64,000 nt of DNA from an uncultured Gammaproteobacteria bacterium. GTDB taxonomy: Bacteria; Patescibacteriota; Microgenomatia; Levybacterales; UBA12049. The DNA is taken from contig OZ246394.1 in assembly GCA_965230895.1 (NCBI GenBank), positions 1,121,887-1,185,886 of the forward strand, given 5' to 3'. The notes under the pieces are model-generated. The model did no database searches and had not been told where the DNA came from. It worked only from the letters and a program-made list of their open reading frames with translations. Positions 1 through 62,276 of the stretch are shown here, piece by piece (the first letter of the stretch is position 1; each line of letters opens with the position of its first letter). Made by a program: the position numbers and the translations under genes.

Positions 1-3000
1 AGGGAAAGTCCGGCCATCCAGACGCCATCTCTTTGGAAGACATCGTTGGCTTTAATAATGATAGAATTGTTCAATTCTCCAGGGAGACTTAATGCGACCT
101 GCGCTTCACCTCGTTGAATTGCTTGCTGGACATCTAGCTTTGAGGGATTAAGACCCGATGCCTGACTGAATTCCATATTTTGTATTTGAAGCACTACGGC
201 ATCACCTTGGCGTAATGTGTGGAAACGTAATTCGTTTCGCTCCGAAGGACGGGTATCATAACCGTAATATTCTCTGTGATTTGTCTTTGTAGCCCATTCA
301 TTCCAGACTCCCGTCTCACCAGATACTGGGCGTTCAATTGTGCGCGTTTCAAATCGAGTTGCAATATTTTCTGTATTTACCAAGCTACTCCCTTGATCAT
401 ATTGCAATGTATCGCCCTGGAAAAATGCGTCATTTATAAGTACCTGGTCTGGCTTTGCATCAAGGACTAGATCAAATCTCCCATTATCTTCAACCCAATG
501 TGTTCCATCAGGGACATTTACTCGGTGCCCCATGATATCTGCTGCATGGGATGTCGTCGACGTAAATCCTTCGGTCGCTGGTCCAACCTCTCCTGCTCCA
601 AAAAATCGTTCAAGTGATGTCATCTGTGTTGGACGATCTGCCAACCCGATCGATTCAGCACCTCGATGTAAGCCTGCAAAAATCTCTTGCGTTACAGCAT
701 GGCCAATGACGCTTCCACCAGCCGCCATGACAAATGTCATTGAACCTTGTTTTGCTTGCGCGAGAACTCGCGCTCGTCTCATCGCACTGTCACGACTATC
801 GATAGACTCGTTTGACTCTATACTTGTGCTGAGTGCTGCTTGAAATTGGTTCTGAACTTCGGTACCGCGTTGAATATTTCGTTGCAATGCGTCAGAGAGA
901 GGATTAAGTATTTTATCTACAGAATCTCCTGGCTGGAAATCAACACCGAGCGAACGTGCATACGCTTGCATACCAGGAACATTATCTTGTGCATACTTGC
1001 GAAGCTCTGCAGTTGTTCGGGCTTTTAAAAGTTCGAGATCTGTCTTTTGAGCGTCCAATGATTGGTCTGTCGTTGTACGATATAATTCGACATTTGTGTT
1101 ATCATCCATCATTTGGCGGCGAACTTTACTATCTGCAAGTAATCCAAAAGCGTTATTTAGGATGTCATTGGTCACACGACCTGATTGAAGTTGCTTTCGT
1201 GCTTGCTCCAAAGGATCAAGGACGCCTGTTTTGATATCAAGCATTGGCAACTCGAGCTTCTTCATTTCATTGCGTCGTTTTGCTTCTTTATCAAAGGCAA
1301 CTCCTCGTGCAGCCTCACGACCATGCTGCTCATATTCCCTTGTGAATCGTGAACGTTCTTGCCCAGCCCGTACTGCACCAGCTACGGCAGAACCTCCTAA
1401 GATTGGTAAGAATATATTTCCACCTAAAGCTCCAGCTCGCTGCAGAGCATACAATCCCAAACCAGTAGCGAAGCCTGCAGTGTTATGGCCGCCGACAAAG
1501 CCAAGAGCCTTTAATCGCCCACTTGCGGAGTCAATTGCATCAAGATACGCGCCAGGCACAGGGAATTCTGGACCTCTATCTTGCTCTATCTTTTGGTAAA
1601 GATCCATAACACGCTGATTCGTAACGGAACGTGCATATTTTGCTTCGCGTTTTGTTTCTTGTACACTTCCTTGCTCACCAGCTTGCAATGTACCGACGTT
1701 AACTTTAAGCACCATTTGGTCAACATAGTTTTGGAGATTACCTTCTGATTGGAGATGGTTTTTGATAGACATTAACTGCGGCAAGAGAACATTTTCGACC
1801 ATAGGGACAATATTTGTTCCATAACTCATGGAGAGATCCAAATTACTGCGAACATCTTCTGGAAGATTATTTCTCCAATTTGTAAATTCTTTACTGAAGA
1901 ATTTCTCTTGAACAGCAGTACGAATTTCAAGAAGACGATCCTCGCTCAACGTCCCTCCATTTGCTAAGCCTTCTGTAAGCATCGGAGTAATTACTTCATT
2001 TTTGAAGAAGTCAGCGACCGGTCCTGTCATTACAATTTCTTGCGCACGCTTTTCGCCTACAGCAGTTCGTATTGCATCATCACTAAACTCAGTACCAAGC
2101 CTTCGCGCCAAACCTTCTCCTGCTTTAAAATCACCTGTGAGCACATCTTTATATGATTGGACGAGTTCTGGGTTTGCTGCGACAAAAGCTTGTACTCCTG
2201 GCTCACCTGAACTACGAGCATCATAAGCGCTGCGGAGCGTCCGAACAATTTCAACTTCTTGTGCAGCCAGCTCACGTTGATTCCGTCCAGCAAGTTCTCG
2301 CAAGTTTTTTATTTTGTTTTTGCCTCGCTCCCAACGACTCATATCATCGGTTTGATTCTCATTGATCTTATCGCGTGCTGAAGCGACTCTATCTTTCATT
2401 TTTTCCCGACGGTTCATCCCATCTCTTCGAGCATCTCTATCCGCTTTTTCTTGATCTCTGGCTGCAGTAATAGTTTCCTGAGCTGCATTGCGTATATTTC
2501 GTAAGAACTCATACGGCAAAGACTTCATTTGCACACCAGCTTCAGCCAAAAGCTGGTGCGATTGATCTTTTTCTTTTACATAGGTGTTCAGACTATGCAC
2601 GCCATATTTCCACCAACGAGGAATTGCTTGCTTAAATGATTGCTTCAGTTGATCGATTTTAGTGGAGTCTTCACCTTCAGCTTTGCCTGCCCACTTTTCC
2701 TTGCCTTCAGTCATGCGAGCTCGAGCAGTCATACGCGCTTCTTGCTCGACAACTTCTTGCTCTGTCTGACCTTCTTTTCCGATTCTATGCTTTGCCGCTG
2801 CAACTGAGAACTCAACACTCGCTAATTCTCGAAGAACTTCTTCAGGATCACGAGTGTCCGCATCTTTTGGAAGACTAGGCGTTGGTTGTTCTTCAGAATG
2901 CTTTTGTGGTTCTCTTTTTTCCGGTGCAGGACCATCGTGTGTGCCACGATCTTTAGTATCCACTGGAGCAGGACGAGGTGCAGATGTCCCCTCTGTAGTC

Positions 3001-3026
3001 GTTGGTGCTGGTTTAAATTCCGCCAT
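1..3026 (-). CDS. Giant hypothetical protein, 5' part only (>1008 aa in window; 3' end runs off window start)
   Basis: My own translation of the minus strand shows an uninterrupted frame from ATG at 3026 (preceded by AAAGGA 6 nt upstream and an in-frame TAG at 3084-3086) down to position 1. It is absent from the ORF track only because there is no stop codon in the window. The plus-strand small ORFs at 276-3152 are antisense shadows. The product has Gly-rich hydrophobic segments (e.g. FVGGHNTAGFATGLGLYALQRAGALGGNIFLPILGGSAVAGAV) and charged helical stretches. GC is visibly higher than in the rest of the window. Confidence 0.7.
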   Translation of the reverse strand, partial: MAEFKPAPTTTEGTSAPRPAPVDTKDRGTHDGPAPEKREPQKHSEEQPTPSLPKDADTRDPEEVLRELASVEFSVAAAKHRIGKEGQTEQEVVEQEARMTARARMTEGKEKWAGKAEGEDSTKIDQLKQSFKQAIPRWWKYGVHSLNTYVKEKDQSHQLLAEAGVQMKSLPYEFLRNIRNAAQETITAARDQEKADRDARRDGMNRREKMKDRVASARDKINENQTDDMSRWERGKNKIKNLRELAGRNQRELAAQEVEIVRTLRSAYDARSSGEPGVQAFVAANPELVQSYKDVLTGDFKAGEGLARRLGTEFSDDAIRTAVGEKRAQEIVMTGPVADFFKNEVITPMLTEGLANGGTLSEDRLLEIRTAVQEKFFSKEFTNWRNNLPEDVRSNLDLSMSYGTNIVPMVENVLLPQLMSIKNHLQSEGNLQNYVDQMVLKVNVGTLQAGEQGSVQETKREAKYARSVTNQRVMDLYQKIEQDRGPEFPVPGAYLDAIDSASGRLKALGFVGGHNTAGFATGLGLYALQRAGALGGNIFLPILGGSAVAGAVRAGQERSRFTREYEQHGREAARGVAFDKEAKRRNEMKKLELPMLDIKTGVLDPLEQARKQLQSGRVTNDILNNAFGLLADSKVRRQMMDDNTNVELYRTTTDQSLDAQKTDLELLKARTTAELRKYAQDNVPGMQAYARSLGVDFQPGDSVDKILNPLSDALQRNIQRGTEVQNQFQAALSTSIESNESIDSRDSAMRRARVLAQAKQGSMTFVMAAGGSVIGHAVTQEIFAGLHRGAESIGLADRPTQMTSLERFFGAGEVGPATEGFTSTTSHAADIMGHRVNVPDGTHWVEDNGRFDLVLDAKPDQVLINDAFFQGDTLQYDQGSSLVNTENIATRFETRTIERPVSGETGVWNEWATKTNHREYYGYDTRPSERNELRFHTLRQGDAVVLQIQNMEFSQASGLNPSKLDVQQAIQRGEAQVALSLPGELNNSIIIKANDVFQRDGVWMAGLS

Positions 3027-3177
3027 ACATTGTCCTTTCTTAGAGTTTGCAAAAATAGCAGCATATGTGCCGCCTCTTTGCCTCTATCCATTTATTATAC
3101 ATACTCTCATATAAGACAACAACGAATTTTTGAGAAAATAAGCACCTTGTAATGAACGTAAAAGGTAGATGTAAGGA

Positions 3178-3537
3178 TTAGTTTGAGGAATCAGCTGGAG
3201 TACTGAGATATACACCTTGAAATTCAATTAACACATCCGTCATAAACTCTGTAAAGTTAGCAATATGATCTACTGCAAACTGTTGCAGTTCTGCTTGCGA
3301 AGTATTTTGTTTCAACAAATTTTCAAACTCTGTAACATCTTCATCTGAAAATGCAGCAATAACCCGAGCCATGATAAAGTCATTGAGTCTTATTTGCAAA
3401 TCCTTTCGCAGTTCTTCACGAACCGAGTCATCCATATCGGGATAATTTTTCTTGTCGATGAGATCGTCTATGTATTGATTAATATTTTGCTGGTCCATGG
3501 ATATATTTACTATAGAGTGCAACTTCGGAGATGTCAA
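3178..3537 (-). CDS. Small acidic hypothetical protein (119 aa)
   Basis: Intact ORF lying between the PP2C-domain gene (17-nt gap) and the giant gene, on the same strand. It is Asp/Glu-rich and has no recognisable motif. Confidence 0.45.
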   Translation of the reverse strand: MTSPKLHSIVNISMDQQNINQYIDDLIDKKNYPDMDDSVREELRKDLQIRLNDFIMARVIAAFSDEDVTEFENLLKQNTSQAELQQFAVDHIANFTEFMTDVLIEFQGVYLSTPADSSN

Positions 3538-3554: not shown

Positions 3555-5753
3555 TTAGGAGATAGGCTCATATACGAAAGACGGAAAAGCCTGTGTAACA
3601 TCATCTTCTCCCTTTTCATAAAAAAATTGTACAAGCGCTCGTGTATTTTCGGGCTTCTTACTCTCGTGCTCTCGAAAAGCATCTTTCCAAGCAGTTTTAC
3701 CTTCCTCGTCAAACCCGTTTATACTCAAATATGCATCCATACTATCAACGGAATCTACCTCAAAAGTTGCAGCGGCTAATTCATTTGCGTATCCTATGTA
3801 AATATTACTCTGCACGTCGCCTGCCTGCTCAAGCTGTTGCATCTCTTGCTCTATCTTTGTACGTCTTTCTATCGTTAACCTACTTTTTCGAGCACGCATC
3901 ATATTTTTATAGAGCACGTCGACATCTACTTGTTGAAGAATATCACTGTTATCCACATAGGTAATAAATTGCTGTTCAATTGGAGTTATTCGTCGACCAA
4001 TCTTTGCTTCCACTGCTGCAATAAGTTGTTTACTTGCAAGTATGTACTCCAAGTTTTGGCCAAAGAGCGTATTACTTGCTTTTGCAGCATCAAGTGCTGC
4101 AGATGGCTTCTTATCAGGAATATCTGCTGAGATATCAATCACTTCAGCTGTCATATCGTCTTTCTTTGCACGGACATCGCTACTTAACCTTGATCTAGCT
4201 TGAGCAGCTTCGATCAGTTTTGAAACAGCCTGAGACGCATTTTCTCCAGAGGCAAGAAGAGATTCTATAGCACTATCCGTGAGATTATCATGGATCCCAT
4301 CTGAAGTTATAAGATACCGATCGTCTTCTTCAACAGCATGCACTGTTAAAGAAGGCTCGATATATTGGATTCCTAGTGCCTGTCCTACTTCATTCCTTGT
4401 ATGGAAAGCATTCTTTTCCGGACGACTTAAAGCGCGAAAGTCATCTGCTGTATCAAGCGCTGCGAGCTTTCTCTGACGGGCCCATTGCTCATTTGGATCA
4501 ACAAAAGGACGCGGGTCATCAAGCGTTAGAACCTCGAGCTTTCCATCCCGGAGACGATAGAGTCGAGTATCACCGATATTAACATGAATTAGCTGCTTTT
4601 TCCCATCATTTCCCTCATAGATGTGGCTCAATGAGAGAGTCGTTAATCCCTTACCCTGTGTCGTTTCCAAAACCATCTCATTACATCCAATTGAGATGCG
4701 CATGAGGAAATCTGAAACTTCTTCAAGCGTTGCACCGTCAGGGATATACTTCACTGCTTCGGCGAGATAGTCTTTCGCATTTTGGACGGCCTTATCAGCC
4801 TCATCGCTTCCGCCTACACCATCAAGCACTCCAAACGACCGACTATCCATATCAAAGAGTAATCGATCTTGATGCGGTTTGCCTTTCTCATTCTTAACTG
4901 TCTCTCCTGCTGCAATGTCACCATACGATACCTTTTCTTCAGTCTCGCTTGGCGTTGTCGTTTCGATCGGAGCAGGTGTAGTTTCTAAAACTGTTACACC
5001 TAACTTATGGGCAAGAGCATCCAGACGTGTTCTTTCAGTTGCTGAAGGTTTGCGCTGTATCCCAGACTGTATTTTTGTAGCAATTTTTGCTTTCACATCT
5101 TCTTTTTGTGACAAAATTGCTCGTGCAACAGCAAAATCAGCTACTAATTCATCAGCATTTTTATCAGTACCGAAAATAGCCAACATTGGCTTGATCGCAT
5201 CCAATCTATTTTCTAATCGAGCTATATCGACGGAACCATCAGCTCTTGTGCATCCATCTGAGATATCTTCAATGAACCGATTAATATTACTGCCCTTTTC
5301 GGAGACATACTTCTGCCTGAATGTTTCCACTTGTGCATAGAGTCCCTGATCATTCATGTTATTATCGGAGACATCCAAGCCAATAGCTCCCAATGTCATT
5401 CGGCGCTCCCCTCGTATATGCGTATCTACCGCCGGATCTTGAAAAAACTCTTGCATTGAATCGTAAAAATCCATATTCCATTCTTTATTGCGGACATCAA
5501 AATCACGGTTATCATTTTTATCAAATTCATGCCGACTTTCTAATGAAACCTTATTTGCAGCGGTTAATGCTGTATGAAGTGCATCAGGAGTTTTTTGAGA
5601 GAGCGTATCGCGTTGCTCATCAGACATACTATGCGCCTCATGCCGCACAAAAGAAGTTTCGACCGCTGCTGCTGTAACATGTGCTATTGCTGGGGTAACT
5701 TGGACACGACTTTCTGATTCACGATTATGGGGACGCTCTGTATGTTCTCTCAT
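3555..5753 (-). CDS. PP2C-family Ser/Thr phosphatase-domain protein (732 aa) with uncharacterised N- and C-terminal regions
   Basis: The central region carries the PP2C signature blocks: FGVLDGVGGSDEADKA (the DGHGG-like metal-binding motif), IGDTRLYRL (GDSR-like), and YLITSDGIHDNLTD (the DG..D C-terminal metal motif). About 290 aa N-terminal and about 240 aa C-terminal have no identifiable motifs. Confidence 0.6.
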   Translation of the reverse strand: MREHTERPHNRESESRVQVTPAIAHVTAAAVETSFVRHEAHSMSDEQRDTLSQKTPDALHTALTAANKVSLESRHEFDKNDNRDFDVRNKEWNMDFYDSMQEFFQDPAVDTHIRGERRMTLGAIGLDVSDNNMNDQGLYAQVETFRQKYVSEKGSNINRFIEDISDGCTRADGSVDIARLENRLDAIKPMLAIFGTDKNADELVADFAVARAILSQKEDVKAKIATKIQSGIQRKPSATERTRLDALAHKLGVTVLETTPAPIETTTPSETEEKVSYGDIAAGETVKNEKGKPHQDRLLFDMDSRSFGVLDGVGGSDEADKAVQNAKDYLAEAVKYIPDGATLEEVSDFLMRISIGCNEMVLETTQGKGLTTLSLSHIYEGNDGKKQLIHVNIGDTRLYRLRDGKLEVLTLDDPRPFVDPNEQWARQRKLAALDTADDFRALSRPEKNAFHTRNEVGQALGIQYIEPSLTVHAVEEDDRYLITSDGIHDNLTDSAIESLLASGENASQAVSKLIEAAQARSRLSSDVRAKKDDMTAEVIDISADIPDKKPSAALDAAKASNTLFGQNLEYILASKQLIAAVEAKIGRRITPIEQQFITYVDNSDILQQVDVDVLYKNMMRARKSRLTIERRTKIEQEMQQLEQAGDVQSNIYIGYANELAAATFEVDSVDSMDAYLSINGFDEEGKTAWKDAFREHESKKPENTRALVQFFYEKGEDDVTQAFPSFVYEPIS

Positions 5754-5820: not shown

Positions 5821-7002
5821 ATGAAGAAATTTTATCAATTCATTACTGCATTTTTCTTTATCCCGCTTCTCCTCGCTTTTCCATTTGCTCAACAAACCCA
5901 GGCTGCAGAATTTCGTGCAGGAGATGAGGTGCGGATCAATGCAGATGAACAAAATCTTAATAATCTTTACCTCTTTGGTGGAAATATAACTTTAGACGCT
6001 CCGGTCGCAAATGAATTGACGACAGCAGGTGGGGATTTAAATCTTAATAGTGCTGTTGAAGGAAGCGCTCTAATAGGTGGAGGAAATATCACCATACGAG
6101 GACCAATTGGCAATAATGCTAGAATAGCGGGCGGAGATATTACGATTGATGCGCCAATAACAAACGACCTTGTTATTACAGGGGGCAATATAACAATCAC
6201 TAAGAACGCTTCAATTGGAGGAGATATCCTCTTTGCTGGGGGAAAGCTTACTGTAGACGGATCGGTTGCTGGCAAAATTCAGGCAAATGGTGGAGATATC
6301 GTAATTAATAGTACAGTCGATGGAGATGTTTCAGGGAATATAGAGAAGTTAATACTTGGTCCTGCAGCAAATATTTCTGGCAATCTTTCATACAAATCAC
6401 CGGAGCAGGCAAAAATTGAACAAGGGGCAACTATTTCTGGGCAAACGAATTACCAGCCTGAACATAACGACCAAGACCGCGAAAAGAGTGCAGCGGGATT
6501 CTTTGCAGGGGCCGCATTCTATAAGTTGATTGCAGATATAATTATTTGTCTCCTTTTCGTGTACTTCCTCAAAGGCTCAATCATAGCTATTATCAATAGA
6601 ATGAGATCCTCACCAGTAAAAAGTGGTGCTGTAGGGTTTGCATTCATTATCCTTGTACCGATCGCCGGTTTTCTCCTGTTCCTTTTACTTTTCCTCGGAG
6701 TCGTAACCATGTTGAGTTATGCTCTATTCTGGCTTATTAGCATATTCATTGCGCAGCTCTTTCTTGGCTGGGCACTTATGCATTGGCTTCAAAGAAGTAA
6801 TAAAGCAGAGTATATTCTCGATTGGAAAGCGGCTATTGCAGGACCAATTATTGTGTTTATTTTAATGTTTATTCCGGTCTTTGGATGGTTGGCATTTGCT
6901 GTAGTTTTCTTAATTGCACTTGGAGCAATGCTTGGAGAATTGATAACTCTTATTTCTACGCAAAAGCAAATAACCACGACCAAACCTTCACGAAAGAAGT
7001 AA
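5821..7002 (+). CDS. Membrane protein with a bactofilin-like beta-helical repeat domain (393 aa)
   Basis: The N-terminal hydrophobic signal/anchor is followed by a region of about 170 aa of imperfect repeats (GGNITI, GGDITIDAP, GGNITITK, GGDILFAGG, NGGDIVINST, SGNIEKLIL) that resemble the alternating G-D/N-I pattern of the bactofilin (DUF583) beta-helix. The C-terminal half has about 4 predicted TM helices. Confidence 0.5.
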   Translation: MKKFYQFITAFFFIPLLLAFPFAQQTQAAEFRAGDEVRINADEQNLNNLYLFGGNITLDAPVANELTTAGGDLNLNSAVEGSALIGGGNITIRGPIGNNARIAGGDITIDAPITNDLVITGGNITITKNASIGGDILFAGGKLTVDGSVAGKIQANGGDIVINSTVDGDVSGNIEKLILGPAANISGNLSYKSPEQAKIEQGATISGQTNYQPEHNDQDREKSAAGFFAGAAFYKLIADIIICLLFVYFLKGSIIAIINRMRSSPVKSGAVGFAFIILVPIAGFLLFLLLFLGVVTMLSYALFWLISIFIAQLFLGWALMHWLQRSNKAEYILDWKAAIAGPIIVFILMFIPVFGWLAFAVVFLIALGAMLGELITLISTQKQITTTKPSRKK

Positions 7003-14968: not shown

Positions 14969-15412
14969 CTAAACACTTTCGACCGATCCCCCGGCCTTTT
15001 GAATCTTTTCTGCTGCGTTCTTAGAAACTGGTAATTTAACTGTCAATGCAACATCAAGTGTACCATTTCCAAGGATTTTGATCTTTCGGTGTTTCCCAAG
15101 TTCATCTCTAACTAATCCTTGTTTTGTAAGTGATGCGACATCCACAACTGCACCTTTTGCAAAAACATTCAATGCATCAACATTAAGAATATATGCTTTT
15201 TCTTGCAATGAAGCGTTTCGACTTTTACCTCGAAGGAATGGCAAACGCTTTGTCAAAGGTAATGCTCCACCTTCAAATCGAAGTGGAACACTATTTCGAG
15301 CTTTTTGCCCTTTTTGTCCTCGTCCTGAAGTTTTACCACGACCTGATCCGTGCCCCAAACCTACACGTTTTTTACTTTTTGATTTTATCTGCTTTAATTC
15401 TGTTAAGTTCAT
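14969..15412 (-). CDS. rplO: 50S ribosomal protein L15
   Basis: GLGHGSGRGKTSGRGQKGQKAR Gly/Arg-rich L15 N-terminus. Confidence 0.93.
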   Translation of the reverse strand: MNLTELKQIKSKSKKRVGLGHGSGRGKTSGRGQKGQKARNSVPLRFEGGALPLTKRLPFLRGKSRNASLQEKAYILNVDALNVFAKGAVVDVASLTKQGLVRDELGKHRKIKILGNGTLDVALTVKLPVSKNAAEKIQKAGGSVESV

Positions 15413-15414
15413 AA

Positions 15415-15942
15415 TTAACCTTTCTTAACGACAGCTACTCGATCTTTTTCTTTTGCAACCTGCTCACTGACTTTTCTCAATGCTTCAAGTGTCGCATAGA
15501 TATTACTAATCTTATTTGTTGTTCCAAGCATCTTTGAAGAGATATTTTGGATACCTGCTGCTGATACAACACTTCGAACAGCTCCACCTGCGATAATACC
15601 ACTTCCTGGAGGTGCTGGCTTTAGCATAATCTTTGCTGCACCAATCTTCACATCGATTCTGATAGGGATGGTACCTTCGACCAATGGGATTTCGATTAAA
15701 CCTTTCTTTGCTTTACTAATACCTTTTCGGATAGCACTTGAGACATCTGGAGCTTTACCTAAACCTACTCCAACTCGACCTTTTTTATCACCAACAACTG
15801 TAAGCGCTGAGAATCCAACTTTATTTCCACCTTTTGTTTTCTTTGAAACACGGTTAATTTGTACAACATTCTCTTCAAATTCACTCGGAGTTTGATTAAA
15901 TTGTCTTCTTTGATTGTTATTTTGATTTTGATTAAATGCCAT
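15415..15942 (-). CDS. rpsE: 30S ribosomal protein S5 (Asn/Gln-rich N-terminal tail)
   Basis: S5 dsRBD and C-terminal domains (VVQINRVSKKTKGGNKVGFSALTVVGDKKGRVGVGLGKA). It is directly followed by rplO with a 2-nt gap, so there is no room for rpmD (L30). Confidence 0.93.
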   Translation of the reverse strand: MAFNQNQNNNQRRQFNQTPSEFEENVVQINRVSKKTKGGNKVGFSALTVVGDKKGRVGVGLGKAPDVSSAIRKGISKAKKGLIEIPLVEGTIPIRIDVKIGAAKIMLKPAPPGSGIIAGGAVRSVVSAAGIQNISSKMLGTTNKISNIYATLEALRKVSEQVAKEKDRVAVVKKG

Positions 15943-25642: not shown

Positions 25643-25852
25643 AGTGTTTTAAAAATAAAATCTCTCAATTCATTTATTGAGAGTAAATGTATGATACTAC
25701 AAAAAACGTGCCCCGTCAATAGGTTATTGTAAGAAAAACAGACTAAAACTCATGTATTTTGTTACTTTCCGTTGTTTTAGTATATTTATATTAAGGTATA
25801 TATAAGATATATATGCTTGACATTAGATTTTTTAAAGTGCAACAATAAAGAT

Positions 25853-28144
25853 ATGAATCCTGACCAAGGCACTACGTCACAAACACAACCTCTACCAGCA
25901 CATGATACTCTAAGTGCACAGTCAAGAAAACCATTGCCAAAGAAGTTTTTTATTATTGGGGGCCTTTTATTATTGCTCATCATTGCAATTGCATTGACAT
26001 TATTATTTGGGAAAAGTGAGAAAACTACCTCGAAAGATAATACTTCAGCGGTAGCTCCAACTTCAGGATTTGAAGAGATTAAAGAAACTGCGGAAAATTC
26101 ACCAACTGCAAAAGCTAGCTCGCATGTTGTAGTTTATGGATCATGGACAGGACAATCATCTTTAATAAAAGCAATTGATACAAATACCTCCAAAACTCAG
26201 TTAATCGCTACCCTTCCTATGGCAATTAAAAAAGTCGCTGTTCTTAACAACCAATCTCTCCTTTATATTGGGGACGTTGATAAAAAGGATCATGGGAAAA
26301 ACGTCACTATATACGATATAAAAGAGAAGAAGGTAGTTTCTACTATCTCAGCTTCTGAAGGGTACGGAATTGATGAATATACATTATCTCCAGATAAGAA
26401 GTATCTTGCGCTATGGGAGGTTCAATTTGCACAAGGATCAGAAATATTACAAGGTGGAAAGTCCAGAGTTTATACAGTTGCATTATCGAACCCAACAGTT
26501 AAGAATCTTATATATGATGAGCAAGCATTACAACCAATTCACTATCCACGAGCAATTCTTAATGATGGAACAGTATTTATGGATATGTTTATGCCAAATG
26601 ATCCACTTGGTGGAGCAGGATGGGCATACGGCATGAGTATGGCTTCGTTTGATGGGACAAATAAACGCGATATTGATTCATTAAAGTCAGGAACATATGG
26701 AAATCAGCCAGCATTATCACAGGAAGGTCGATATCTGCTCTTAACAGGATATGATGGAAAGTATGGAGATGGCACAGGCGTTAAGAATGGGATTCGCCAA
26801 GCAATCCTTACATCAAATACTGTTGATCTTGTTGATACAAAAACACTTCAGAGGTATAAATTACCAAATCTTTCAAACAATGATAGCTATGCATCTGCGC
26901 ATTGGGACTTTGTGACAGGCAAGATTATACTTTCAGTAGTAGGCGCAACAGCGGATAAAACAGGTCTTTATGCCTATGATATTGCATCAAAATCTCTTCA
27001 AAAGATTTCTGTTCCCTCGATAAATAACACTGAGTATATGCAAATCTCTAATCTACCAAATAACCAATTATTGATAGGCACATTTGAAGAAAATTCATCA
27101 AATCTTGGTAATTTAGGAGCAAATTATGAATATGCTTATACAAAACTAATGACATTGGATACTAAGACCTCTAAAAGCAAACCAATCTCTCTTGAAGATA
27201 CGTATGCACAATATATAACAGTACTTCCAGCTGATTATTTCAATAATGTCCTCGGGATCAAAACAATAGCCCAAGCAAATCCTCAGCCTACATTTGTAGA
27301 CCAGTATTCTGATCAAAATGCTACAAAAGAACGGTTGCAACTTTATACATTCTTCTTGAAATATGATTTGCAGCCTGTTCGCCTAAAGCAACAAAGCACG
27401 CCTGTTTCAACAACTCCAGTTAATTTATCAAAGATTACGCTGACGCCAAACACAACCTATCCACCACATAACGACGATAATATGCCAAAATGTAATGACG
27501 TTACAGCAAAAGTTTGTGCAGAAAAAGGTCAAGGTCCAGGAACAAAGGACTACACAATGTGTAAAGGTATGTACAAAGCACAAAATATGGAAAGAACGTG
27601 TGATGACTCTCCCCTTTACCTTTATGGTACACCTGGACAAAAAGTCCAAGTAACGATAAACACACCTGTTTATAACGCAATCCCATCCTATGATAGGGGA
27701 TACGAAATTACATTGATGCAACATGGGAAAATGCTTATCAATAATAACTCGTATGACAGAATTTCTTATGACTACTCATCAAATTTGAAAATAAGAAAAG
27801 CTCCAAAAGAGGGAAGTGTAACAACAAAGGAGAATTTGCCTTCCCTACTTAAAGATTATGCAAGAAAGCTTGGGCTCAATGATAAAGAGACTAAAGATTT
27901 AATCTCTGCTGGTTTACAGAAAGTCAAAACACCATACGCATTCGTCTCTTTCTATGATCATGAGACATCACATCGTATATTGCCAATCACATTCAATCCT
28001 CAGCCAGATAATTACTTAAATGTTGTATTCTATTTCAAGCAGCTCCAACAAAAGCCGAACCTAACCCCAGTCCCTCCTACATTCCCAGATCCGGTTAAAA
28101 GAGATGGATTTACTGCAATCGAAGTAAGTGAAGTTGTTGAGTGA
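25853..28144 (+). CDS. Membrane-anchored (N-terminal TM) extracytoplasmic protein, paralog A, with an extra Cys-containing C-terminal region
   Basis: The N-terminal polar tail is followed by a TM helix (FFIIGGLLLLLIIAIALTLLF) and then a domain of about 420 aa that is colinear and clearly homologous with the downstream gene. Shared blocks include YGSWTGQ, SPDKKY..WEVQF, LLGGKSR.Y, PTVKN..YDE, WAYGMS, FDGTNKRDI, GTYG.QPALS, LGNLG and QYITVLP. An SPDxKY-type motif suggests a TolB-like beta-propeller, which is a guess. The track start at 25817 is TTG. The ATG at 25853 (MNPDQG) matches the MDPAQP start of the paralog. Confidence 0.6.
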   Translation: MNPDQGTTSQTQPLPAHDTLSAQSRKPLPKKFFIIGGLLLLLIIAIALTLLFGKSEKTTSKDNTSAVAPTSGFEEIKETAENSPTAKASSHVVVYGSWTGQSSLIKAIDTNTSKTQLIATLPMAIKKVAVLNNQSLLYIGDVDKKDHGKNVTIYDIKEKKVVSTISASEGYGIDEYTLSPDKKYLALWEVQFAQGSEILQGGKSRVYTVALSNPTVKNLIYDEQALQPIHYPRAILNDGTVFMDMFMPNDPLGGAGWAYGMSMASFDGTNKRDIDSLKSGTYGNQPALSQEGRYLLLTGYDGKYGDGTGVKNGIRQAILTSNTVDLVDTKTLQRYKLPNLSNNDSYASAHWDFVTGKIILSVVGATADKTGLYAYDIASKSLQKISVPSINNTEYMQISNLPNNQLLIGTFEENSSNLGNLGANYEYAYTKLMTLDTKTSKSKPISLEDTYAQYITVLPADYFNNVLGIKTIAQANPQPTFVDQYSDQNATKERLQLYTFFLKYDLQPVRLKQQSTPVSTTPVNLSKITLTPNTTYPPHNDDNMPKCNDVTAKVCAEKGQGPGTKDYTMCKGMYKAQNMERTCDDSPLYLYGTPGQKVQVTINTPVYNAIPSYDRGYEITLMQHGKMLINNNSYDRISYDYSSNLKIRKAPKEGSVTTKENLPSLLKDYARKLGLNDKETKDLISAGLQKVKTPYAFVSFYDHETSHRILPITFNPQPDNYLNVVFYFKQLQQKPNLTPVPPTFPDPVKRDGFTAIEVSEVVE

Positions 28145-28186
28145 TCGAGCTTGACAAACTCTCCGCAATATTGACAAAATAGCTCT

Positions 28187-29635
28187 ATGGATCCTGCCCA
28201 ACCAAATCCCAATCAACCATTACAGCAGCCACAACAACCGCCACAGTCAGAGCAAGCTGCTACGCCCGTTGCACCAACACAGCCACCAGCACCTGACGCA
28301 ACAAAGCCTTTCCCAAAAAAACTCGCGCTAATAGCAGGCGGAGGTGCGCTCATTCTTCTCATTATTATTGCAGTTATATTTGGCCTGAGTGGAAGAAAAT
28401 CTTCTAACGGAACTGTAATGCCCACTCCAACGAAAGCTCAATCTGGGGGAGAAGTTAAAGCAACGCCTGTAACAAGAGATCCTGATGATCCACAAAAGAT
28501 GATGATCTATGGAACATGGACAGGGCAAACAACTGTAGTCCGGGGAGTTGATATTGGCAGCTCCGAGAGTCTTAATATTGCTACGCTTCCACTTGAGGTA
28601 AAGAAGATTTCAGTTCTCTCCTCGCAGAACCTGATGTACATAGATCAAGTTGACACAAAAGAGTTAGGACGTAGGATAACTATTTATAATCTTAAGACCA
28701 AAACTTCAAGTCAAAGCATTCCGGCCTCTTCAGGATATGGGATAGAAGATTATGCTTTATCTCCGGATAAAAAGTATATTACTATTTGGGAAGTCCAATT
28801 TGGATCGACAACACAATCTCTTCTAGGTGGAAAATCAAGAATCTATGCAATTGATTTATCAAGACCTACAGTAAAAAACATTCTTTATGATGAAACAGTA
28901 AGTACAACTATTCCGATACACTACCCAATAGGTATTTTGAATAATGGTACTGTCTTCGCAGATACTCTTATTCCGAGTGGCACAAATGGCAGTAAAGATT
29001 GGGCATATGGTATGAGTGTTGTTGACTTTGACGGTACAAATAAGCGAGATATTGAATCGATGAAGAAAGGAACCTATGGAACCCAACCAGCACTTTCCCC
29101 TGACGGCAAATACCTCCTATTTGCAGGATATGATGGATCAAAAGGTAACGATCCTGCAGGGAGACAAGCAATAATGACACCAAACACGATTGATGTTCTC
29201 AATACTGAATCACTTAAACGATTCACACTACCAAACCTTTCAAGTACAAATACCTATCCAACGGTTTCATGGGAATCTCAAACAGGAAGAATCTTTTTTG
29301 CTCAATTTTCGCTCGATACTCAGAAAACAAATTCATTCTCATATGATCTGGGCAAGCAAAAACCAACTGAGATCGTTATTCCAATTGAAGGCGATTCGAG
29401 ATATGGATATGTAGAACAACTAAATGATGCAAAAGCACTTATCGGAGCACAAGATCTCGATCCATCTAACCTAGGCAACTTAGGAAATGCTCCTGCTTAT
29501 GCCTACACACAACTAGCACTTTTAGACGTGCAGACTTCAAAAGTTAACTTTGTCTCAGTACAGGATGCATTTGTACAGTATATAACTGTATTACCTACCA
29601 CCTACTTTAAATCCACACTTGGTGAGGCTCAATAG
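28187..29635 (+). CDS. Membrane-anchored extracytoplasmic protein, paralog B (482 aa)
   Basis: The Pro/Gln-rich N-terminal tail is followed by a TM helix (LALIAGGGALILLIIIAVIFGL), then a domain homologous to paralog A. Confidence 0.6.
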   Translation: MDPAQPNPNQPLQQPQQPPQSEQAATPVAPTQPPAPDATKPFPKKLALIAGGGALILLIIIAVIFGLSGRKSSNGTVMPTPTKAQSGGEVKATPVTRDPDDPQKMMIYGTWTGQTTVVRGVDIGSSESLNIATLPLEVKKISVLSSQNLMYIDQVDTKELGRRITIYNLKTKTSSQSIPASSGYGIEDYALSPDKKYITIWEVQFGSTTQSLLGGKSRIYAIDLSRPTVKNILYDETVSTTIPIHYPIGILNNGTVFADTLIPSGTNGSKDWAYGMSVVDFDGTNKRDIESMKKGTYGTQPALSPDGKYLLFAGYDGSKGNDPAGRQAIMTPNTIDVLNTESLKRFTLPNLSSTNTYPTVSWESQTGRIFFAQFSLDTQKTNSFSYDLGKQKPTEIVIPIEGDSRYGYVEQLNDAKALIGAQDLDPSNLGNLGNAPAYAYTQLALLDVQTSKVNFVSVQDAFVQYITVLPTTYFKSTLGEAQ

Positions 29636-59021: not shown

Positions 59022-62000
59022 ATGACTGAACGCGAACCAACACATAAAGAAAGAAAGGGAAAAGGCCATAAAGATATGGGCGGAGAAATTGTATCTCCGG
59101 CGGAGCTTCTTGCACCATATGATAAACCTCCATTTGACCCGCTTAGACAAGGTGGACTACTTACAACTGCAACGACAACAGAAGCATATGTAAGACCTTC
59201 CTATTTTAGAAAAAACCCTGAAGGGCTTACGAAAAGTGATGTTAAAGGTATTTATATGGAGGATAAGCCGCCAGAAAAATTAGGTTTTACTGAAATTGAT
59301 TCTGGTCTTGAAGGAGAATATTTTATTTTTGATGACCAAGGCGAAACAGTCTCGGCAATGAATCCAGGAGACCCTTTCAGGACTGCGCTAGAAAGATTTA
59401 ATGCAACTGCACAAGAAAATGGTCAAGAAGAGATTGGATACACAGTGGAAATGGCTGCAAATTGTGTTGAGTTAACCTTCGATCATGGAACGGATATTAA
59501 ACGAAGAAACAGAAGTTACCTAGGCACGCTAAAATCACTTGTAAAAATTGCAGACGAAACTGGAGTAAATATTGCACCAATAGCAAATATCCCACATAGA
59601 CGACTACAACCAGAGGAAATAACTGATGATCCATATACACAAAAAATAACATTCGATGTTCAAGGATGGGATGCAGCACAACATTTTGACATTGCATCAA
59701 TTCAACCACACGTAGAAGTGCTCGATCATTTAGCTGCCCGCAAAGTAATCAATCATTTACAGCATGTATCACCTATTCTTTTGGGTGCAACTCTTTCTGG
59801 ACCATTTATGGATGGACGTTTAGAGCCTAATCCTGAAGAACGATATGGTACTGCTCCTGGAGTTGATGGCGATCCATGGAAGGAAGCAACGATAGAAAAC
59901 TTAGAACAAGGCGAACATCATTCATACAGACCAAAAGGAAGATTTTTTGGATCCCCTTCTGGAGGAGTTCTGAGACAACCAATTCCAGAAGATGAGGAAG
60001 AATTCTTGGCATCTATTGGTGCAAAGTTGGAAAAAGGTGAAGTTCCAACTGCAGGACGAGAAGGTGGGCATCACACAGATAGATATCGAGTTGACATACC
60101 ACCGCATGGCACTCTTGAATTATGCACACTTGATCCCGCTGGAGGCAAAATAGAACGAGTTGTTTCCATGCGCGAATTTGTACGTGGACTTGGATGGAAG
60201 ATGCAAATGCATATTATTAATGGAGACTTTGAGCAAGTTCAAGAACGTTATCCAGCATTATTTGGCCAAGAACCATCAACCGAATCATTTGAGATAGCTC
60301 ATCATAATAGTATGCGCGTTGCAAAACATGGAGCAGATGCAATCTTACAAGGTATGGACGGAGAAGAACATACGACAAGAGAGCTTTGGACACAGCTAAG
60401 AGAATTTGTACAAGAACCATTTATAGACGAGGCACATGGTATTGCCTATGAAGGTCTCCCTCCAAGAATAATTGCAGAAGTAAGTAGAGCATTTCTTGAC
60501 CCTGATAAAACTATGGAGAAATTTAAAGATGCTGAAGGAATTACATCTGTTAAAGGTTTCTATGAAACTGGTATCGGGAATATCAGCCATTGGATGATGC
60601 AGGGTGCTAAGGACAGAATTGAATCAGGGATGGAAGAAAAAGAAGCTGTAATGGCTGTAACTGTTGATGTTGCGAAATCGTTTCATGAACATATTAAGAG
60701 CGCTTCAGAAAAAGACCTCGATACCCTTTATAAAAATCCAAACGGAACCTTTACTATCAACGCATTACCCACCGATGAAGCAAAAACATATTGGGATAAG
60801 CTCTTACAAAAAAATCTTGTACCTGATGCAGGTGAACATTTATTACAAATGGGACATCCTGTTGAGTTGCCGTCTACCCTTTCAGAGCAAATCGTCGCTG
60901 GAGCAAAGGCAACCCATGACATCATTTTGGCAAAGATAAAAGAACAAGGTGGCGTCACAGAATGGCTAAAGGATGCTCCCGTTATGTTTGGGCCCCATGT
61001 CATTAATGATCCCGAGGTAAATAAGCAACTTGATAGCAGAATAGATAAGGGATTTGGATTGCCGCTAGAATTCGACACTCTTTTAAGCCGTAAAGATGGA
61101 GAATTACATACTCCTATACTTGAGATTCATACCGCCATTAGCTATGAAACTGTCTTAGCGGATAGACTGGAAGCAGCTGGGTATGATACAACTGCTTCAA
61201 ACACAAGATTCGGTGAAACTTCTCCAGCAGATATTTATGCAAGCTTCCCAGAATTGTTTGCGGGAGGAGAACCTATTGTAGTAATGGATACTTTCCCATT
61301 TGATTCCACGAGACCAGATAAAGTTGGTATGCAGCGGCTTATGGGAAATCCAGACAGCCTCCCAATTTCGCCATTGGATATCATTGGCAAAGATGAGAAT
61401 GGATACTATTATCATCCGTACATTGAAGACCCTGAAAAACCACTTGATGCAAAAAGAGATGAACAAGGTAAACCGATAAAAGATACGTCAAAAACCGAAT
61501 ATGTAAAGCATGCGTTTGCGCGAATGGCACAATATGATCTTGATGTTTTGTGGGACACGATTAATGCAAATCCTGATAAAGAAGCTGCTCAGGAACAAGG
61601 AGATTTAATAGCACAATTTCTACGAGATAGTTCCGTTAATTGGGTTTGGCATCCTTCATGGCAACATCTCGGTGACAAAAAAATGATGCCAGATGTTAGA
61701 AAAAAAATGATCGAAGACGCCAACCCGCTTGCTGATCAGTATGTTCCAGTTTATGGGGCAGGAGAAACAGTAGTTGAGTCAGGCAAATATATAAAAAAGC
61801 CTACAAGCGCACAACATGGGGTTGATCAGTCAAGAGAAACTGTACAACAGAATGATGTTGTTACAGTAGAAGAAGGATATGTATATCAAGGACTTATAAC
61901 ACCTTTACCTGTGGTATCGTACGTTGAGGGTTACCTCGCTGAAGAGATGAGAAGAGCTGATCAAACTACATTGCGAAGCATCGATAGAGTCGCAGGAAAC

Positions 62001-62276
62001 AATTTAAGACCAATTACTGGACAACTTGAAATTAGAGCTTTAATACCTCCCTACTGGAGAACAGATACAGAGGATACTGCAGGTGAAATCGCTGGTAGAT
62101 ATATGACAAGATTTGCTCCTCGCTGGGATAGACCAGAGAAAGAGCTAAAGCTTACCCAAACCAACGCTTTAGGAATAACAACAGCACTTCATAGACATCT
62201 TGATTCGACCCAAGACAATGAAAACCACGTGTTCTATCCGTATGGTATGGCTCCGGTAGTCGTCTACGAAGCATAA
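59022..62276 (+). CDS. Large (1084 aa) protein with N-terminal GCS2/YbdK-like carboxylate-amine ligase region and about 650 aa uncharacterised C-terminal region
   Basis: The blocks GVNIAPIANIPHRR, IQPHVEV and LLGATLSGPFMDGR line up with the GTHPF, GQHVHVG and LSAASPYMQG motifs of the glutamate-cysteine-ligase family 2. There is no signal peptide or TM segment. Confidence 0.4.
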   Translation: MTEREPTHKERKGKGHKDMGGEIVSPAELLAPYDKPPFDPLRQGGLLTTATTTEAYVRPSYFRKNPEGLTKSDVKGIYMEDKPPEKLGFTEIDSGLEGEYFIFDDQGETVSAMNPGDPFRTALERFNATAQENGQEEIGYTVEMAANCVELTFDHGTDIKRRNRSYLGTLKSLVKIADETGVNIAPIANIPHRRLQPEEITDDPYTQKITFDVQGWDAAQHFDIASIQPHVEVLDHLAARKVINHLQHVSPILLGATLSGPFMDGRLEPNPEERYGTAPGVDGDPWKEATIENLEQGEHHSYRPKGRFFGSPSGGVLRQPIPEDEEEFLASIGAKLEKGEVPTAGREGGHHTDRYRVDIPPHGTLELCTLDPAGGKIERVVSMREFVRGLGWKMQMHIINGDFEQVQERYPALFGQEPSTESFEIAHHNSMRVAKHGADAILQGMDGEEHTTRELWTQLREFVQEPFIDEAHGIAYEGLPPRIIAEVSRAFLDPDKTMEKFKDAEGITSVKGFYETGIGNISHWMMQGAKDRIESGMEEKEAVMAVTVDVAKSFHEHIKSASEKDLDTLYKNPNGTFTINALPTDEAKTYWDKLLQKNLVPDAGEHLLQMGHPVELPSTLSEQIVAGAKATHDIILAKIKEQGGVTEWLKDAPVMFGPHVINDPEVNKQLDSRIDKGFGLPLEFDTLLSRKDGELHTPILEIHTAISYETVLADRLEAAGYDTTASNTRFGETSPADIYASFPELFAGGEPIVVMDTFPFDSTRPDKVGMQRLMGNPDSLPISPLDIIGKDENGYYYHPYIEDPEKPLDAKRDEQGKPIKDTSKTEYVKHAFARMAQYDLDVLWDTINANPDKEAAQEQGDLIAQFLRDSSVNWVWHPSWQHLGDKKMMPDVRKKMIEDANPLADQYVPVYGAGETVVESGKYIKKPTSAQHGVDQSRETVQQNDVVTVEEGYVYQGLITPLPVVSYVEGYLAEEMRRADQTTLRSIDRVAGNNLRPITGQLEIRALIPPYWRTDTEDTAGEIAGRYMTRFAPRWDRPEKELKLTQTNALGITTALHRHLDSTQDNENHVFYPYGMAPVVVYEA

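Follow-up and report, generated by a model that had tools for sequence, protein, structure and literature searches.

A divergent PP2C-type phosphatase domain between two lineage-specific modules in a protein of a CPR-like bacterium

We analysed a stretch of bacterial DNA of 64 kb (64,000 nucleotides of contig OZ246394.1, hereafter the window) and, within it, a single open reading frame (ORF) that occupies positions 3555..5753 of the minus strand, starts with ATG and encodes one protein of 732 amino acids (aa), followed by a stop codon. Three parts follow one another in this protein, namely an N-terminal domain (hereafter N-dom), a PPM/PP2C catalytic domain and a C-terminal module (the C-flank). 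The ORF is a genuine gene: an identical protein (P0001) is present on the NCBI record of a 1.61-Mb contig, and the gene call on the identical contig of the Logan assembly (L001) coincides with 3555..5753. A preliminary description of the same DNA had placed PP2C motifs only in the middle third of the protein, between flanks of 290 aa and 240 aa considered as lacking recognisable features. The location of the motifs was borne out, in that the PPM fold covers aa 274-541, the alignments with PDB sequences span aa 291-520 and the metal ligands are intact. The sizes of the flanks were roughly right, being 273 aa and 191 aa when the core is delimited on the predicted structure. As for their lack of features, it holds for Pfam and NCBIfam, in which neither flank has a match, but both flanks are conserved, folded modules, the first found in 65 clusters and the second in 8 of these 65.

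The structure of the full-length protein predicted by AlphaFold2 (AF2) had a mean predicted local distance difference test score (pLDDT) of 83.6 and a predicted template modelling score (pTM) of 0.70. Its low-confidence part, aa 256-269, lies around a linker rich in Pro, Thr and Glu (aa 262-273; 4935..4970, minus strand), which was recognised both in the model and in the alignment of the relatives; at this site 130-170 additional residues are present in the relatives P0002 and P0003. Neither a signal peptide nor a transmembrane segment was found in the window protein. A word-indexed search returned as full-length relatives only P0002, P0003 and P0004, with 34-44% identity in the alignment and both flanks present, the closest being P0002 (42-44% identity). 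A 153-aa ORF (4879..5340, plus strand) runs antisense to the region coding for N-dom and has tblastn matches in related loci; being a shadow cast by the conserved coding strand, it is unlikely to be a gene.

The catalytic domain (aa 274-541; 4131..4934, minus strand) was identified with NCBIfam, PDB sequences, Foldseek and homologues. Precisely, the NCBIfam model Stp1_PP2C_phos (NF033484) matched with E=7.4e-18 and 64.9 bits, against an equivalog cut-off of 230 bits; phmmer against the sequences of the PDB retrieved PstP (1.3e-8) and tPphA (1e-6), and also Stp1, MspP and PppA; and Foldseek, run on the full model against the PDB, retrieved tPphA, MspP, PstP, Stp1 and PppA with E values from 2e-11 to 1e-8 and target-normalised TM-scores of 0.76-0.84. 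The comparison with an AlphaFold model that the preliminary description had proposed thus confirmed a PPM fold. The metal ligands of PstP and tPphA align with conserved Asp and Gly residues of the window protein, all encoded on the minus strand: Asp296 in the motif HQD (4866..4868), aligned with tPphA Asp18; the metal-binding pair Asp311-Gly312 in the motif LDGVGG (4818..4823), aligned with DGMGG of PstP and tPphA; Asp395 in IGDTR (4569..4571), for which PstP and tPphA have their third-metal Asp (GDSR) at the aligned position; and Asp485 in TSDGIHDNLT (4299..4301), a metal ligand according to the PDB alignment and part of a subclade signature. Asp532, in the motif KKDDMTA (4158..4160), which corresponds to the last PPM motif D-N-x-T, would be the equivalent of PstP Asp229, judging from the position of the motif. 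D296, D311, G312, D395, D485, G486 and D532 are invariant both across an alignment of 16 sequences (A4) and in alignment A2; the absence of metal-binding Asp residues, which had been named as a reason to abandon the PP2C assignment, was therefore not observed. In the whole 64 kb the PP2C-like motifs LDGVGG (aa 310) and TSDGIHD (aa 483) occur only once.

The middle domain is hence a divergent member of the PPM/PP2C superfamily and not an equivalog of Stp1/PstP, and from its residues it is probably a catalytically active, metal-dependent Ser/Thr phosphatase. Enzymes of the Stp1/PstP/tPphA/MspP type are its best matches in both sequence and structure (target TM-score about 0.8), and both have the same Asp and Gly residues for metal binding, among them the third-metal Asp in GDxR. 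The Stp1/PstP type is, however, a single domain of about 240 aa with or without a C-terminal membrane anchor, whereas the window protein adds 273 aa before and 191 aa after; it also differs from Stp1, PstP and tPphA in a flap about 20 residues longer and in the lack of the motif-I Arg at the aligned position. In fact, the test for a Stp1/IreP/PstP equivalog failed on the bit score given above and on the two extra modules in a protein of 732 aa.

The subclade with the motif T[ST]DGIHDN is present in many metagenome-assembled genomes of Patescibacteria and Saccharibacteria, and also in Ktedonobacteria, and some of its members are fused to FHA or kinase domains. The assumption that genomes of the candidate phyla radiation (CPR) or similar to it rarely carry Ser/Thr signalling is contradicted by this distribution. 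The same subclade was found on all the contigs with 'binchicken' in their titles (e.g. L005, L015, L036), whose taxonomic labels resemble placeholders; two of them, L015 and L036, titled 'uncultured Gammaproteobacteria bacterium ... binchicken', have genes in common with CPR-like loci that carry N-dom. The phosphatase core is ordinary, and the novel part of the protein is the common N-terminal domain.

N-dom (aa 6-261; 4971..5738, minus strand) was delimited from phmmer matches, the coordinates of a local hidden Markov model (HMM) and the AF2 model, in which it is compact and all-helical, with 13 helices. For an exhaustive phmmer search we joined the N-flank and the C-flank of the window protein into one query, which was compared with 1.84 billion cluster representatives. 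The search gave 65 representatives at E<=1e-3 (52 at E<=1e-10) with lengths from 99 to 1656 aa, and nearly all of them match only the query residues 1-260, mostly at their own N-terminus. When N-dom alone was modelled by AF2 with 38 sequences, a compact helix bundle was obtained with a pLDDT of 93.8 and a pTM of 0.89. The residues S70, R74, W92, F145, Y149, F160, L184, F194 and G195 are near-invariant, and there is no conserved cluster of His or Cys in the domain.

No match to N-dom was found in Pfam and NCBIfam for about 30 family members scanned, and its profile had no relative among PDB sequences. As regards structures, Foldseek gave nothing significant for N-dom against the PDB (best E=1.8, TM-score at most 0.27) or against BFVD (best E=0.35). 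Metagenome contigs, searched with N-dom and with the whole protein, gave nothing; viral contigs, searched with N-dom, contained no relative; and a scan of genome contigs, which did not include the genome of the window among its results, returned only relatives of the PP2C core without N-dom. Among the papers searched, none ties Saccharibacteria or Patescibacteria to PP2C, to threonine phosphatases or to an effector domain conserved at the N-terminus, and none describes N-dom. It is a well-folded, modular domain, apparently undescribed, with a fold that has no relatives in the libraries searched.

N-dom is portable, the CPR-like lineage having attached it to many different enzymes, and the partner regions are wholly different between members. 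A PP2C domain of the same type is found in 11 of the 65 representatives, P0028 carrying two copies. Elsewhere N-dom is combined with an HExxH motif (P0039, P0040, P0053, P0065, P0068, P0072, P0077, P0080), with a JAB-like HxH...PSxxD motif (P0048, P0074) or with an alpha/beta-hydrolase-like region (P0081, a weak Pfam match). In P0075 it is followed by a transmembrane helix and then by a Pfam Sortase domain (E=4e-22), while in P0035, P0037 and P0043 it comes after a His-rich, apparently membrane-spanning region, which in P0035 has a weak match to Pfam Cation_efflux (CDF). P0087 is a STAND NTPase composed of HTH, NB-ARC and TPR regions, with two partial copies of N-dom at the C-terminus. Most other partner regions had no Pfam match. 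The His-rich tails or leaders of P0035, P0037, P0038 and P0043 hint at a link with metals, and on L091 (640..3527) the P0035 gene is followed by genes for Fur and a ZIP transporter.

In the window there is only one N-dom gene; in related contigs such genes often form tandem arrays. Their order is MgsA, HD, P0028, a split gene with N-dom and JAB-like motifs and a third N-dom gene in L086/L087; HD, a 900-aa N-dom PP2C and P0039 in L088; and HD, P0034 and a further N-dom gene in L085. The same split gene occurs in two independent NCBI assemblies (L086 11800..14148 and L087 7904..10252) and consists of a 99-aa N-terminal piece and a 655-aa piece with two JAB-like motifs; the split could be programmed, or could result from a frameshift or the decay to a pseudogene. 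A protein of about 200 aa with an HD domain adjoins the N-dom PP2C gene or the array in L002, L085, L086/L087 and L088, and is a candidate functional partner. A gene for a MgsA/RarA-like ATPase is also located upstream in L002, L086/L087 and L088.

The C-flank (aa 543-732; 3558..4127, minus strand) is a second lineage-specific module. In the AF2 model it consists of helices and a terminal beta-hairpin, it contains the recurrent motif GRxLTxxE at aa 586, and no model of Pfam or NCBIfam matches it. A local jackhmmer search found it in the PP2C members P0002, P0003, P0004, P0028 and P0050. In P0084 and P0086 it comes directly after N-dom, with no PP2C between; for this reason the phosphatase looks like an insert between two modules, and the C-flank probably cooperates with N-dom.

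Some of the fusions also bear on the cellular location of N-dom. The topologies of sortases, CDF transporters and STAND proteins are established, and the C-terminal domain of CDF transporters is cytoplasmic. N-dom lies ahead of the anchor in the sortase fusion and after the membrane region in the CDF-like fusion (P0035), in which it sits where the cytoplasmic C-terminal domain of CDF would be, and it is also part of a STAND protein; from these three fusions we place it in the cytoplasm. By analogy with these topologies, N-dom would work inside the cell, and this is our main argument against a simple secreted effector.

As for the neighbouring genes, a sigma-70-like promoter near consensus (TTGACA-17-TATAGT, 11/12 matches; 3509..3537, minus strand) comes directly after the stop codon of the PP2C gene. 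It is followed on the same strand by a small, helical-looking ORF of no known family, which would encode 106 aa from ATG 3498 (3178..3498) or 119 aa from TTG 3537; it is supported by the L001 gene call and by a homologue in L003. The promoter overlaps the TTG start and the L001 call begins at ATG 3498; the actual product is probably the 106-aa protein, made from its own transcript with a short leader. An ORF of 119 aa beside P0087 was considered as a possible homologue of this small ORF and proved unrelated. The small ORF separates the PP2C gene from a giant gene, also on the minus strand, whose 5' part (1..3026, from ATG 3026) runs off the start of the window. The giant neighbour given in the preliminary description is therefore present: the window encodes at least 1008 aa of its product, and L001 (4349..9532) extends this to at least 1728 aa. 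This giant protein has a Thr/Pro-rich N-terminus, hydrophobic segments rich in Gly and Ala and, beyond the window, a weak GT2/EpsD-like stretch (aa 1241-1463), and otherwise resembles no known family; its homologue in L003 is 2464 aa long. The giant gene is preceded by a gap of 150 bp, in which we noted a TATAAT box together with a GC-rich hairpin and its T-tract (3057..3110, minus strand); these could be a separate promoter plus a 5' untranslated structure or attenuator.

The trio of PP2C, small and giant genes recurs in one related contig only, L003, with identities of 35% for the PP2C protein, 48% for the small protein (E=3e-30) and 24% for the giant one (E=7e-41). In this contig the block of the small and giant genes is inverted and flanks the PP2C gene on its opposite side, and the cluster is again beside rpsI. 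The two genomes are related (S9 is 68% identical). P0002, P0028, P0034, P0050 and P0051 have other neighbourhoods, without the small or the giant gene; among the contexts of N-dom PP2C genes there are MgsA-HD arrays, and a succession of ClpB-like, SdrD_B, N-dom PP2C and NusA.

The neighbour beyond the 5' end of the PP2C gene is transcribed divergently (393 aa; 5821..7002, plus strand). Its product begins with a signal-peptide-like stretch, has a bactofilin-like repeat region that scores just under the Pfam threshold and ends in a long hydrophobic part; the gene is not kept beside the L003 homologue. Farther along, at 14969..15942 (minus strand), only 2 bp separate the S5 gene from the L15 gene that comes next, and no L30 gene intervenes. 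A missing L30 gene has been reported as a trait of CPR bacteria. We called the window CPR-like because of this absence, together with the sources of its relatives. Genes for envelope functions of the monoderm type (LCP, FemAB) are also present. Three large ORFs of 775, 482 and 1084 aa, at 25817..29635 and 59022..62276 (plus strand), had no or marginal Pfam matches, and neither tRNA genes nor Rfam families were found in the whole 64 kb. PADLOC gave nothing for the three genes of the trio or for three N-dom relatives, so we set aside the idea of a defence system.

Two known systems resemble the general plan of this protein. In the PPM phosphatases of the RsbU/RsbP/SpoIIE type, a regulatory N-terminal domain precedes the PPM domain, and the helical N-domain of RsbU switches the PPM domain on. 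As in these proteins, a helical, non-catalytic N-terminal domain here precedes PPM, and its expected function is to recruit or activate the PPM domain via a protein partner. N-dom is, however, unrelated in sequence to the RsbU domain, is about 255 aa long instead of about 110 and is also attached to enzymes that are not phosphatases; moreover, unlike in RsbU and SpoIIE, the core is nearer to the Stp1/PstP type and no genes for partner switching with STAS proteins and anti-sigma kinases are located nearby. The second system is represented by the polymorphic toxin and effector families, such as LXG proteins and other substrates of the type VII secretion system, which have a constant N-terminal trafficking domain. 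With the LXG type the family has in common a constant helical N-terminus of about 250 aa, variable enzyme-like C-termini, tandem arrays and small helical proteins nearby. A difference is that N-dom occurs, too, in a STAND NTPase and, within membrane proteins, on the side that faces the cytoplasm. There is no sequence likeness, and a Foldseek comparison of N-dom with the LXG structure 8gmh revealed no similarity (E=8.1, TM-score 0.15-0.18). We found no secretion genes beside the window gene, and no immunity genes turned up, although a pattern of immunity-like small genes was not specifically examined. The assignments as Stp1 equivalog, as RsbU/SpoIIE protein and as polymorphic effector each miss at least one defining feature.

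On balance, we consider it probable, by a small measure, that the window gene encodes an active, soluble, cytoplasmic PPM phosphatase whose recruitment or regulation depends on N-dom, a portable module for docking or regulation, with the cooperation of the C-flank. The catalytic core sits between two lineage-specific modules; according to this explanation, N-dom would bind a common cytoplasmic partner or site and thereby either deliver the enzyme fused to it (in this protein the phosphatase) to the substrates or turn it on, much like the N-domain of RsbU; the C-flank would work jointly with N-dom. Docking or regulation is most likely the role of N-dom. The PP2C fold with its metal ligands, the modular spread of N-dom, its confident globular model and its cytoplasmic side in membrane-protein fusions are results of the analysis; this role, the catalytic activity and the identity of a partner and substrates are inferred, and we consider the giant protein and the 106-aa protein only as candidate partners.

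Several observations weigh against this explanation. No partner or substrate emerged from the analysis, and the cognate kinase or anti-sigma partner that the preliminary description proposed to look for was not found in the window: there is no Hanks kinase motif in any frame of the 64 kb, Pfam gave no kinase or FHA match on its large ORFs, and no STAS, HATPase_c or anti-sigma genes are present among the neighbours or the large ORFs. The description of N-dom as a fold without relatives rests on two Foldseek libraries, PDB and BFVD. The Pfam models for PP2C, including the two that had been named for the check (PF13672 and PF00481, in addition to PF07228), had no match on the full protein up to E=10, while NCBIfam, PDB sequences, fold and homologues agree on PP2C. 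The motif-I phosphate-binding Arg (tPphA R13, PstP R20) aligns with Gly291, so the binding of substrate or phosphate may not be the same; the flanking residues are Lys290, invariant within the close family, and Lys292. These last two points, Pfam thresholds not reached and an Arg not kept, would suit a dead pseudophosphatase serving only as a binding scaffold. We consider this extremely unlikely, as neither the family nor its wider relatives show any variation in the metal-binding Asp and Gly residues, a pattern unexpected for a dead enzyme. As for Pfam, the excised core gave sub-threshold matches to SpoIIE (E=0.0025, 18.2 bits, cut-off 25) and to PP2C (E=0.017, 15.3 bits, cut-off 20.3), and two full-length homologues exceed the PP2C_2 cut-off of 24 (P0002 with 31.4 bits, P0004 with 48.3 bits). 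Since these homologues pass, we attribute the failure of the models to divergence and not to the absence of the domain.

The peptidase-like, hydrolase-like and phosphatase partners and the tandem arrays also fit a repertoire of secreted effectors, which is a further point against a cytoplasmic docking role. N-dom would be, in this case, the recognition or translocation domain of an export route of epibiotic CPR bacteria and the variable enzymes its payloads, directed at a host or partner. Such a system would show an unvarying N-terminal domain ahead of C-termini that look like enzymes and differ widely, as is the case here; two or three N-dom genes with differing partners stand in tandem in L085, L086/L087 and L088, including the split copy, in L086 and L088 a PilB/T2SSE ATPase gene lies upstream at a distance of a few kb, and the lineage is CPR-like by its missing L30 gene and its monoderm-type envelope genes. 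Nevertheless we judge an exported effector unlikely, because N-dom is on the cytoplasmic side of the sortase anchor, follows the membrane region of a weakly CDF-matching protein and is present in a cytoplasmic STAND NTPase; the window protein lacks a signal peptide, and its gene has no secretion genes beside it; and the family lacks likeness to LXG, PADLOC matches, relatives on viral contigs and, as far as they turned up without a specific examination of the pattern, immunity-like small genes. It is equally doubtful that N-dom is an address tag with a new fold for a hitherto unrecognised, lineage-specific effector arsenal of CPR-like, probably Saccharibacteria-related bacteria, made up of phosphatase, metallopeptidase-like, JAB-like and hydrolase domains and delivered to the host cell or deployed at the host interface, in which the PP2C member would erase host Ser/Thr phosphorylation. 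A dedicated regulator of the giant membrane protein, which would dephosphorylate its Thr/Pro-rich cytoplasmic N-terminus with the 106-aa protein as an adaptor, is compatible with the docking explanation. The three genes lie on one strand in the window and their linkage in L003 survives a local inversion. The regulation of the giant protein suggested in the preliminary description is nonetheless only weakly sustained, and we regard it as quite improbable: the linkage is limited to two genomes that are related and have both clusters beside rpsI, so shared ancestry can explain it; the small ORF has a strong promoter-like site ahead of it, and the giant gene a TATAAT box with a hairpin; and the five relatives named above stand in contexts without these genes. 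Finally, N-dom might sense or deliver metals, or mediate oligomerisation, for metal-dependent partners. PP2C (Mn/Mg), HExxH and JAB-like enzymes (Zn) and the CDF-like region beside Fur and ZIP genes (P0035) all deal with metals, four members carry His-rich tails or leaders, and in the CDF-like fusion N-dom takes the place of the cytoplasmic regulatory and dimerisation domain. Such a role is very unlikely given that no cluster of His or Cys is conserved in N-dom and that its sortase, alpha/beta-hydrolase-like and STAND partners are not metalloenzymes.

The significance of the domain goes beyond the window protein. In one poorly understood lineage, a dozen or more types of enzymes, often encoded side by side, share N-dom as their common handle. 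If the partner that these proteins share is a regulator, an export route or some structure of the cell, its discovery would explain a whole set of 'dark' CPR-like proteins, and it would show how reduced cells organise Ser/Thr signalling and proteolysis. With one domain and many payloads, the family offers a testable entry point.

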